Below, in pieces: positions 1-3,000 of a DNA stretch of 64,000 bases. Origin of the DNA: a virus (lineage: Duplodnaviria; Heunggongvirae; Uroviricota; Caudoviricetes). A program made the position numbers. Positions within the stretch are counted from its first letter, which is position 1. The number at the start of each line of letters is the position of its first letter. The stretch is from the IMG/VR virus record IMGVR_UViG_2880366365_000011. One strand, given 5' to 3'.

Positions 1-3000
1 CAGTGGATATGTCCCGCGAGGCATCACTGGAAATGCAGTCTGAGCCGGGCGGCGACAGTACCACGCCGTCCCCGGTGGAGCTGGTTTCCATGTTCCAGAC
101 AGGCAGCGTGGCCATCCGTGCGGAGCGCTGGATCAACTGGCGTCGTCGCCGTACTGCGGCGGTGGCGGTGATCACCGGAGTGAACTACGGCAGTGCGTCC
201 GGCGGCTGAGTCTGATAAGGAGGACGGGAGGCGTGCGCCTCCCGTAACAGGTTATGGCAAAGATCCGATATCTGCAGGGCACGCATGATGCCCGGGCCGG
301 GGATATCCGTGATGTGGCACAGCCGTGTGCGGAGGTGCTGGTTCGCCTGGGAAAGGCGGAGTACATCACGGTGCGACGTCCGGCAGGTCAGAAAAAGAAA
401 CGTGATGCGGAGCATGGCGAATGTGGAACCTTTTACGGCGAACCCGAAAAAACCAGAAATCAGGACGTGACGTAAGAGAGGCGGGCTGGACCAGCCTGTT
501 TCAGGCGGTGGCTGAGCCCTTTTCCGGCGCCTGGCAGCAGGGCGTGAAAGCCGATCCTGAAGCCGTCCTCTCCTTTCATGCGGTGTTTGCATGTATTTCG
601 CTGATATCCCAGGATATCGCCAAAATGCGGCTGCGTCTTATGCAGACGGATGCGCATGGGATACGCAGGGAAACGCGCCGGGGGGATATTGCCCGCCTCT
701 GTCGTCGTCCCAACGCCCAGCAGAACCGCATCCAGTTTTTTGAACTGTGGCTGAACGCCAAACTGCGTCATGGCAATACGGTGGTGCTGAAAATCCGTAA
801 TGCCCGGGGGCAGATCAAAGAACTGCGTATTCTGGACTGGAGCCGGGTTGAACCTCTGGTGGCGGATGACGGCGAGGTGTTCTACCGCATCACGCCGGAC
901 CGGAACTGCGGGATCACGGAGGCGGTGACGGTGCCTGCCCGGGAAGTGATCCACGACCGGTTTAACTGTTTTTTTCATCCGCTTATAGGATTGCCGCCGG
1001 TGTATGCCGCCGGGCTGGCGGCCACGCAGGGGCATCATATTCAGGAAAATTCGACGTCTTTTTTCAGAAATGGCGGCAGGCCGTCCGGGGTGATTGAGAT
1101 CCCCGGCAGTATTACGGAAGAAAATGCGAAAAAACTGAAGAGCAACTGGGACAGCGGGTATACAGGCGAAAATGCGGGGAAAACGGCCATTCTGAGCAAC
1201 GGGGCAAAATACAACCCCACGACGTTTTCACCGGTGGATGCGCAGACGGTGGAACAACTGAAGATGACCGCTGAAATTGTCTGTTCGGTGTTCCGTGTCC
1301 CGGCCTACAAGATTGGCGTGGGACAACCGCCTTCCAGTGACAACGTGGAGGCGCTGGAGCAGCAGTATTATTCCCAGTGCCTGCAGACGCTGATTGAGTC
1401 CATTGAACTGTTACTGGATGAGGCGCTGGAAACGGGGGAAAACGAGAGTACAGAATTTGATGTCACCACGCTGCTGAGAATGGACAGTGAGCGGCGCATG
1501 AAAACGCTGGGGGATGCGGTGAAAAATACGCTTCTCACGCCCAATGAGGCCCGTAAACGGGAGAACCTGCCGCCCCTGGCCGGCGGTGATGCACTGTATC
1601 TTCAGCAGCAGAACTACAGTCTGGAGGCGCTGTCCCGTCGTGATGCCCGTGAGGATCCGTTCGCGTCTGCCGGGAAAACAGTTTCATCACAGCTGCCTGA
1701 CGGCGCATCTGACGGTAATAAGGCAATCAGTGAAACAGAGCATGATGCGGTGAAAGCGATGTTCAGGGGGGATACTGAGAAAATGACGGAACGGGAACTG
1801 TCCATTATTCGTGCACTGGGAGAAGAATTTTCCACAGTGCTGGCGGATTTACAGCGCACATTTGAGGGGAAGATGGCCTCGCAGGCACAAGCGTTTGAAG
1901 AGAAACTGACTTCCCTGTCGGCGGTATTACAGAAGCATGTGACGGTGGATGAGGTGCGTCCGGTTCTGCAGGCGATGGTGGATGACGCTGTGGGGGCCAT
2001 TCCGGTACCGCGTGATGGTCGTGATTATGATCCGGATGTACTGCAGCAGGCGGTGAATGATGCGGTCGCAAATATTCCGCAGCCGGCGGACGGTAAAAGT
2101 CTCACCCCGGATGATGTGCGTCCGATGCTTGAACAGATGGTGAAGGAGGCTGTAAGCCATATCCCTGTTCCGCGTGATGGTCGTGACTACGATCCGGAAG
2201 TACTGCAGAAGGCGGTGAATGATGCGGTCGCAAATATTCCGCAGCCGGCGGACGGTAAAAGTCTCACCCCGGATGATGTGCGTCCGATGCTTGAACAGAT
2301 GGTGAAGGAGGCGGTAAGCCATATCCCTGTTCCGCGCGACGGTCGTGACTATGATCCGGAAGTACTGCAGAAGGCGGTGAATGATGCGGTCGCAAATATT
2401 CCGCAGCCGGCAGACGGTAAAAGTCTCACCCCGGATGATGTGCGTCCGATGCTTGAACAGATGGTGAAGGAGGCGGTAAGCCATATTCCTGTTCCGCGTG
2501 ATGGTCGTGACTACGATCCGGATGTTCTGCAGAAGGCGGTTCTGGATGCGGTGAGTGCCCTGCCGGCTCCGCAGGACGGGCGTGATGCCACGGCACTGGA
2601 AATACTCCCCGCCATTGACGATCAAAAATCCTTTCCCCGGGGCACGTATGCCACACACCAGGGCGGACTCTGGCGGGCGTATGAAAAAACGCACGGGATG
2701 CGGGGATGGGAATGCCTGGTTGACGGGGTGGCGGATATTGACGTCAGCATGACGGGTGAGCGGTTGTTCTCTGTGGTGGTCCGGCAGAGCAGTGGCCAGC
2801 GTACGGAAAAAACATTTTCCCTGCCGGTGATGCTCTACCGCGGTGTGTTCAGAGCCGGTGAAACCTACCACCCCGGCGATACGGTGACGTGGGGGGGCTC
2901 GCTGTGGCACTGCAACAGTATGACCGAAGATAAACCCGGAGAAGCTCATTCATCAGCCTGGACCCTGGCTGCAAAACGTGGGCGGGATGCAGGAGGCTGA

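Follow-up and report, generated by a model that had tools for sequence, protein, structure and literature searches.

The 64,000-nucleotide stretch analysed here (the window; IMG/VR record IMGVR_UViG_2880366365_000011, Caudoviricetes) carries the late regions of two related lambdoid prophages, each encoding a portal protein followed by a second protein that we call X. Copy A lies at the left edge of the window and copy B about 42 kb downstream, with copy B (42230–47728) 92–95% identical to copy A in a self-BLAST comparison. In copy B, the two proteins are encoded on the plus strand by separate genes, namely an unfused portal gene of 454 amino acids (aa) (42648–44012; Pfam Phage_portal, E=1.4e-80) and a 245-aa X gene (44009–44746; PHROG 1289; AlphaFold2 (AF2) model with a predicted local distance difference test (pLDDT) score of 83) that contains no full copy of the 162-bp unit described below, and the X start overlaps the portal stop (TGA) at ATGA. 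In copy A, both proteins are spanned by one plus-strand open reading frame (ORF) of 859 aa (421–3000), which equals RefSeq WP_000267295.1, "phage portal protein". The portal-coding part (codons 1–454; 421–1782) comprises an HK97-type portal core up to about residue 420 and then a predicted coil. The X-coding part (1783–3000, 405 aa) begins at a retained in-frame ATG (1783–1785, fusion codon 455) and is homologous to the standalone gene of copy B and to standalone genes in other genera.

The alignment of the two copies upstream of the repeat covers 2,064 bases and is interrupted by only one gap, a single G, copy A having a tract of six (G6; 1766–1771) where copy B has five (G5; 43993–43997). 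This additional base places the portal stop out of frame and shifts the portal frame into that of X, which generates the 859-aa fusion; the extra G and the fused ORF described in an initial annotation of this window are thus both recovered, in the alignment and in the ORF list. Within the fusion, assignment to the HK97 portal family covers only residues 1 to ~420, based on matches to PF04860 Phage_portal (272.6 bits against a cutoff of 39.1, residues 54–382, E=5.9e-81) and TIGR01537 portal_HK97 (349.5 bits against 112.05), as well as on alignment of residues 42–420 to nearly the whole chain of the HK97 portal 8cez and of 9lbn. A coil of about 30 residues is predicted after the portal core, at residues 407–437 of a low-confidence model, and residues 455–859 fall outside any portal model. 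The record of phage 2851 annotates the same 859-aa coding sequence (EP2851_54, PHROG 2271) as "portal protein (GP3)", and it and WP_000267295.1 are identical or 99.9% identical to the copy A protein, with the same repeat number. The name "portal" given to WP_000267295.1 hides that its residues 455–859 represent a separate ancestral gene.

The X part of copy A includes three full 162-bp units of 54 aa each (1987–2472, plus strand), which in reading-frame register occupy 1987–2148, 2149–2310, and 2311–2472 and are followed by a diverged partial unit. Tandem Repeats Finder (TRF) reports a period of 162 with 3.3 copies, 95% matches, and no indels at 2008–2540 (score 982). The units are in frame and 90–97% identical to each other (self-BLAST E=6e-176 between units), with units 2 and 3 differing at 5 of 162 nucleotides, all synonymously, and each unit consists of two half-modules of the form "IPxPxDG + helix". 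Copy B lacks exactly the three full units and retains the flanking partial module, i.e. ~0.6 unit. The 54-aa module first proposed is exact, although the "about one" unit ascribed to copy B needs to be revised downwards. Head-to-tail, near-identical, in-frame units whose number differs between alleles make this a coding array similar to a variable-number tandem repeat. Counting units across related prophages, a follow-up suggested in the initial annotation, yielded a clean 162-bp ladder, with distances from the G-tract to a conserved downstream anchor of 317, 641, 803, 965, 1127, and 1289 bp corresponding to +0, +2, +3, +4, +5, and +6 units; copy A is a +3 and copy B a +0 allele. Arrays of 641–1289 bp occur on one identical 820-bp flank haplotype, and parsimony on the flank tree requires at least 15 changes in unit number over 51 tips, the most frequent allele (+3) being stable across many O157 genomes. 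Unit number probably changes through replication slippage or through recombination between units that pair out of register. A 340-aa ORF on the minus strand (1927–2949) spans the repeat and is most simply a by-product of stop-free repeated sequence rather than evidence of a gene.

The first 3,400 bases of the window are 99.9% identical to the Sanger-sequenced Shiga toxin 2c (Stx2c) phage 2851, and the complete genome of the O157:H7 strain TR01 matches both portal regions at 100% identity. Among 5,426 complete E. coli genomes (20,395 replicon records), 1,246 contain the module, including strains of sequence type 131 (ST131) and enteropathogenic E. coli (EPEC). Alleles were searched with synthetic 78/79-nt queries differing only in the G-tract, and exact sites were counted. 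Copy A-type flanks carried G6 in 746 complete-genome records and G5 in 29, copy B-type flanks carried G5 in 151 and G6 in 28, and 70 IMG/VR contigs were divided between 39 with G6 and 31 with G5. The fused G6 allele is the commonest in E. coli.

Other species provide the polarity of this polymorphism. We sampled 26 loci, and the 24 of them that included the portal/X junction came from Atlantibacter, Kosakonia, Enterobacter, Citrobacter, Pantoea, Phytobacter, Morganella, Proteus, Pseudomonas, Delftia, Acidovorax, Variovorax, Marinobacter, and Haliea. Portal and X were separate genes in all 24 junctions and lay in different frames wherever both were intact. In enterics, portal stop and X start overlap at ATGA, and in Pseudomonas, Delftia, Acidovorax, Variovorax, Marinobacter, and Haliea the overlap is 13–17 nt and follows an AAGGAG-type Shine-Dalgarno (SD) sequence; the exception is an Arsenophonus locus (L098), where a degraded portal lies 381 nt upstream of X. 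Pantoea and Phytobacter combine a G5 tract with split genes, and most other enterics have AGAGGA at that position. Likewise, the 120 portals closest to the C-terminus of a distant relative are all ~440–470 aa long. In the E. coli flank tree, G5 lineages are found to either side of the midpoint root, and the G6 sequences group in a single inner clade. Because portal and X are always separate in other genera and G5 lies on both sides of the root, the two-gene G5 form is, on this comparative evidence, ancestral, and the 859-aa ORF a derived +1 slip. RefSeq labels produced by the Prokaryotic Genome Annotation Pipeline (PGAP) for the identical TR01 sequence call copy A an intact "phage portal protein" and copy B "frameshifted", and the polarity inferred here is the reverse. 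As a whole, an ancient separate X gene, a derived fusion, and a variable repeat together probably give the best explanation of the locus, and we hold this with reasonable confidence. The order of genes around the junction is also conserved in other species, i.e. a protease-capsid fusion, a small ORF, the portal, X, and a gp6-like adaptor. In the window, the small ORF is a 73-aa match to phrog_829 that overlaps the portal start (254–475, plus strand; syntenic in 14 other-genus loci), and the gp6-like head-tail connector gene directly follows X (3003–3329, plus strand; Pfam Phage_connect_1 and synteny).

X belongs to a large family. An exhaustive search with the 245-aa copy B protein as query retrieved 5,528 representative clusters at E≤0.001, nearly all of them standalone proteins of ~210–690 aa that match in 1–14 stretches, and their source names are contradictory (portal protein, gp6-like connector, carbohydrate binding domain, or hypothetical). 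No Pfam or NCBIfam family matched X above threshold, the carbohydrate-binding modules (CBM) of family CBM5/12 appearing below threshold only. Precomputed annotations place Pfam PF28083 on the E. coli-type X region (proteins P0002, P0279, P0288, and others), and this recent curated model may already cover part of X. Our literature search found no paper on the 162-bp repeat, on the portal–X fusion, or on X. Standalone X proteins from prophages of Klebsiella, Enterobacter, Cronobacter, Pantoea, Pseudomonas, and Variovorax (PHROG 1289) share the same three-part architecture and the same position between portal and gp6, as does a "hypothetical protein" of Salmonella phage FSL SP-016, itself a standalone X located between the portal and the gp6 adaptor. 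They differ from the fusion in being separate genes with other module numbers and inconsistent names.

In the family alignment, these three parts are an N-terminal helix of ~50 residues, a series of ~27-residue modules, and a conserved C-terminal beta domain of ~140 residues. Each module combines a "PxPxDG" linker with a short helix, and two modules make up one 162-bp unit in the E. coli lineage. Across 149 representatives, the number of module-start motifs ranges from 0 to 22 and correlates with protein length (r=0.85). Although in-frame expansion in such a protein was initially regarded as unusual, variable module number is instead the normal mode of variation in this family, both in these representatives and among the +0 to +6 alleles of E. 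coli. The AF2 model of copy B X shows a helix at residues 3–51, two short helices, and a confident all-beta domain. For the full 859-aa fusion, the model is poor (pLDDT 48.6) and was used for its secondary-structure pattern only, in which eight regular helix/coil modules follow the coil.

The C-terminal beta domain (2578–2997, plus strand) is defined by invariant alignment columns and a pLDDT of 88–96 in copy B X, and includes two CBM5/12-like motifs. A sub-domain of ~50 residues superposes on CBM5/12 structures (chitinase B, 2rts, 2d49) at 1.9–3 Å in a fold search, a tentative similarity, and both share the motif "Y..GD.V.W.G.LW.C......P". Scores against PF02839 (CBM5/12) nonetheless stay below the gathering cutoff of 26.2 bits, at 20.4 bits and, across the window protein and relatives, 19.1–24.8 bits, and sugar binding by X is putative. 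Beyond CBM5/12 and generic coiled coils, no relative of X was found among solved structures, and in a viral fold library the matches were fibre-like proteins bearing collagen, ChiC, or CBM domains. Several X relatives also carry collagen-like Gly-X-Y stretches. Collagen-like tail fibres of E. coli O157 prophages are comparable in that they too contain in-frame repeats of varying number between related prophages (PMC3368898), but the X unit is a 27-aa helix-linker rather than Gly-X-Y, and the gene lies beside the portal instead of among tail genes. The tail-fibre genes of the two prophages analysed here also contain short coding tandem repeats, with periods of 9 bp and 45 bp (15287–15315 and 59428–59518), and the 45-bp period is collagen-like Gly-X-Y.

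Polymorphism in the E. coli set indicates that X is maintained. For the C-terminal domain of X, the ratio of non-synonymous to synonymous polymorphism (pN/pS) equals 0.24 among G5 sequences and 0.18 among G6 sequences, compared with 0.08–0.09 in the portal, and X is under purifying selection in both the fused and the split state. A second tract (G7; 2891–2897, plus strand; copy B equivalent ~44637–44643), located in the conserved TWGGS motif of X, served as a slippage control. It is G7 in 53 of 56 loci and G6 in three, all viral contigs of one haplotype, in which X is truncated to 379 aa. Since this longer tract shows a single slippage haplotype in 56 loci, frame loss inside X appears to be selected against, as far as one control tract can indicate. 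The shorter junction tract is still frequent in either state, which fits a protein that would be functional whether free or fused. Separately, in an Sp10-like phage (PPompW_132418, locus L002, 4782–6006), the annotation of a split X records a frameshift caused by an extra base pair in comparison with Sakai ECs1975, so that further indels in X do occur.

The label "head protein" in the initial annotation is plausible given the position of the gene. Because X is coupled to portal translation, always lies beside the portal gene, and tolerates covalent attachment, the simplest reading is that of a portal-vertex accessory protein, a proposal that we put forward tentatively and that may well prove wrong. 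X would be made in roughly portal-like amounts, its N-terminal helix would dock at or near the C-terminal (crown) end of the portal, and the module array would serve as a spacer of adjustable length and the CBM-like head as a glycan-binding part; fusion would merely make the association between X and portal covalent.

A possible but rather doubtful alternative is that X is an internal head protein seated on the portal crown, analogous to SPP1 gp7 or Mu F, or to the P22 portal barrel. HK97-type portals have their C-terminus in the crown, within the capsid, and SPP1 gp7 binds its portal in the capsid interior. The gene layout agrees with such a role, X being translationally coupled and encoded directly downstream of the portal in 24 loci, much as gp7 and Mu F minor head proteins are encoded directly downstream of, and sometimes fused to, their portals. 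So does the fusion itself, which is widespread, under purifying selection, and attached at a portal C-terminus that aligns to the crown end, with the long N-terminal helix of X following a coil of ~30 residues. This resemblance is however one of layout only. There is no sequence or domain relationship to gp7 or Mu F, the Phage_Mu_F domain (PF04233) giving no Pfam match at E≤0.01 in the window proteins or in ten relatives, and X instead has a repeat spacer and a head resembling CBM5/12 modules and the tips of external fibres. The Gly-X-Y stretches of several relatives also argue against an internal location, collagen-like stretches of this type being known from external fibres. X may be internal, with a gp7- or Mu F-like role, or it may be an external neck fibre that would be misplaced on the fusion.

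Returning to the account in which X is an old, separate gene whose product now also occurs tethered to the portal vertex, several points weigh against it. The fold relatives of the X head are external fibre or carbohydrate-binding proteins, whereas the portal C-terminus aligns to an internal crown, and fused X might end up in the wrong place and be no more than tolerated. Recombination may have imported part of the polymorphism from which purifying selection is deduced for the G6 clade, and homopolymer errors of long-read assembly may account for some of the minor-haplotype counts. Because each prophage of the window is defective, neither copy need be functional in this strain, and we found no experiment on X in the literature. 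Phage 2851, which carries G6, reportedly forms infectious particles (work by Strauch and colleagues in 2008), and a phage with the fused allele would accordingly be viable.

The junction tract may itself serve as a translation signal. The G5 tract lies 11 nt upstream of the X ATG and is probably the strongest SD-like element before the X start, with a predicted anti-SD duplex of −9.4 kcal/mol for G5 and −10.2 kcal/mol for G6 and a 10-nt spacer. This suggests that the tract arose by strengthening the X ribosome-binding site, and translation of free X might still start on the mRNA of the fusion. On a 67-tip tree, tract state changes at least 7 times, compared with ~22 times when states are shuffled, and is therefore mostly inherited but recurrently altered. 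All four combinations of tract length and a single-nucleotide polymorphism (SNP) 8 nt away exist among complete-genome records, and both tract states occur on one identical 820-bp haplotype, although recombination and homopolymer sequencing errors may inflate these tract-change and haplotype figures.

These observations could be taken to mean that the tract is a working switch, either through programmed ribosomal or transcriptional slippage, with one allele giving free as well as fused portal, or as a heritable toggle akin to phase variation and selected to alternate tethered with free X, which we consider improbable. As the sequence shows, slippage by −1 on G5 would lead into the frame of X, the longer G7 tract nearby is far less polymorphic, and the recurrent changes, the four tract/SNP combinations, and the shared 820-bp haplotype would all be in keeping with a switch. 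The tract is however short (5–6 G) and absent from most relatives, which have AGAGGA instead, its state is strongly clade-structured, orthologous copies are stable across many O157 genomes, and some of the switching counts may be sequencing errors. Programmed frameshifting was specifically examined and rejected. We found no in-phase slippery X XXY YYZ heptamer (zero-frame codons are AGG GGG ATA in G5 and AGG GGG GAT in G6) and no stimulatory structure 5–9 nt downstream of the tract, the first hairpin starting 14 nt after it (region z-score −2.1). Conservation of a slippage site was not found either, as most relatives carry AGAGGA, or else an AAGGAG SD, at the equivalent place. The arrangement recalls lambda G/GT and T7 10A/10B recoding, as well as known homopolymeric-tract polymorphisms, in that a one-base frame change at a short run joins two frames into a longer structural protein, but here the change is fixed in the DNA and is accompanied by no conserved slippery heptamer or stimulatory structure. 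At its most elaborate, this idea would have a tract born of the X ribosome-binding site acting as a heritable and reversible toggle between free and portal-tethered glycan-binding X, with the array tuning reach and both states kept by selection rather than drift. We regard this version as improbable too; if true, fusion state and repeat number would alter a virion property, e.g. adsorption, genome retention, or host range.

Still less credible is the view embodied in current database labels, i.e. that the 859-aa ORF is the original, intact long portal and the copy B G5 allele a pseudogenising frameshift. It has the PGAP calls behind it, a reading also used by some depositors, along with some Stx2c phage records that label the split form "portal protein (pseudogene)", the majority status of G6 among complete E. 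coli genomes, a fused cluster of 6,387 members, and the fact that the copy B prophage is without terminase genes and most of the capsid gene. It is contradicted by the two-gene organisation of all 24 other-genus loci, each with overlapping stop and start or its own SD, by the split G5 genes already present in Pantoea and Phytobacter, by the 440–470 aa length of 120 out of 120 nearest portals, by the standalone nature of X relatives, and by X in G5 lineages, whose ORFs are mostly intact at the pN/pS given above. An ancestral fused form, as suggested by an 859-position PHROG profile and by large fused clusters, was rejected in view of the exhaustive homologue search, synteny, and junctions. We also considered independent fusions as Rosetta-stone evidence and discarded them, since the distant fused protein P0199 (1237 aa) is a singleton and its 120 nearest relatives are all unfused.

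Finally, of the two options initially left open for the G-run, a real frameshift or a sequencing artefact, the former stands and the latter, extended to repeat number, is very improbable, for even though homopolymers and 162-bp repeats are classic trouble spots and many short-read contigs break within the repeat to give "partial" proteins, the same sequence is found in Sanger-sequenced phage 2851 and in TR01, G6 and G5 recur in hundreds of complete-genome records (746 and 151) and in 70 viral contigs, array lengths follow a clean ladder, and copies A and B are distinct loci because their flanks differ by 5–8%.

Fusion and repeat are thus a real and widespread polymorphism of an already-sequenced gene, and current understanding is not overturned. 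Three points are new, namely the reversed polarity, the recognised membership of "long portal" residues 455–859 in a large gene family that has no name, and a ribosome-binding site as the likely source of the tract. One consequence concerns annotation, as pipelines name the fused form "portal protein" and treat the ancestral arrangement of two genes as a frameshifted pseudogene; in silico verdicts of a defective portal for this module may therefore be wrong. Portals of this head type were scored as defective in Sakai Sp6, Sp9, and Sp12 and as intact in Sp10 by Asadulghani et al. (PMC2669165), scores that may or may not depend on the G-tract. The fixed place of X beside the portal also makes it a defined target for virion proteomics and cryo-electron microscopy. 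In addition, the now-commonest allele amounts to a natural experiment in which a portal tolerates a C-terminal extension of 400 residues, which can inform ideas on the portal crown and the engineering of portal fusions.

A deletion in the copy B prophage runs from the lysis genes as far as capsid codon ~448 and has removed Rz, both terminase genes, and the N-terminus of the protease-capsid protein. In the region 41527–42436, with a junction near 41838, the capsid gene of this prophage is 5′-truncated, similarity to phage 2851 starting only at capsid codon ~448, and a truncated YdfR/lysis gene abuts it in the PGAP annotation. Just upstream of the copy B holin gene, a 616-aa ORF (39021–40871) is a SASA-family carbohydrate esterase in the TR01 annotation. 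In the copy A prophage, J is frameshifted, L is truncated, and the integrase is broken; TR01, which is identical here, is annotated in the tail region (~9300–13700) with a frameshifted gpJ and a truncated minor tail protein L, and its annotation lists no K or I genes. Between the prophages (~18000–23600) lie a fragmented integrase, a truncated RecE, and an IS66 element (ISEc8) nested in a split IS256-family transposase. Compared with TR01, the copy B prophage has an additional ~1.3 kb (28259–29567) within its replication (DnaT-like/O-type) gene, beside iteron-like repeats of 21 bp (28201–28249), and the size of this insertion suggests an insertion sequence (IS) element. Downstream of each tail-fibre gene (~16000–18000 and 60000–64000), low-GC islands (39–44% GC) carry NleG7 and DUF1076 (NleG-like) type III effector genes. 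At its far end the window runs into ydfJ, adjoining ydfI, which identifies the two prophages as the tandem pair at the ydfJ locus of O157:H7.

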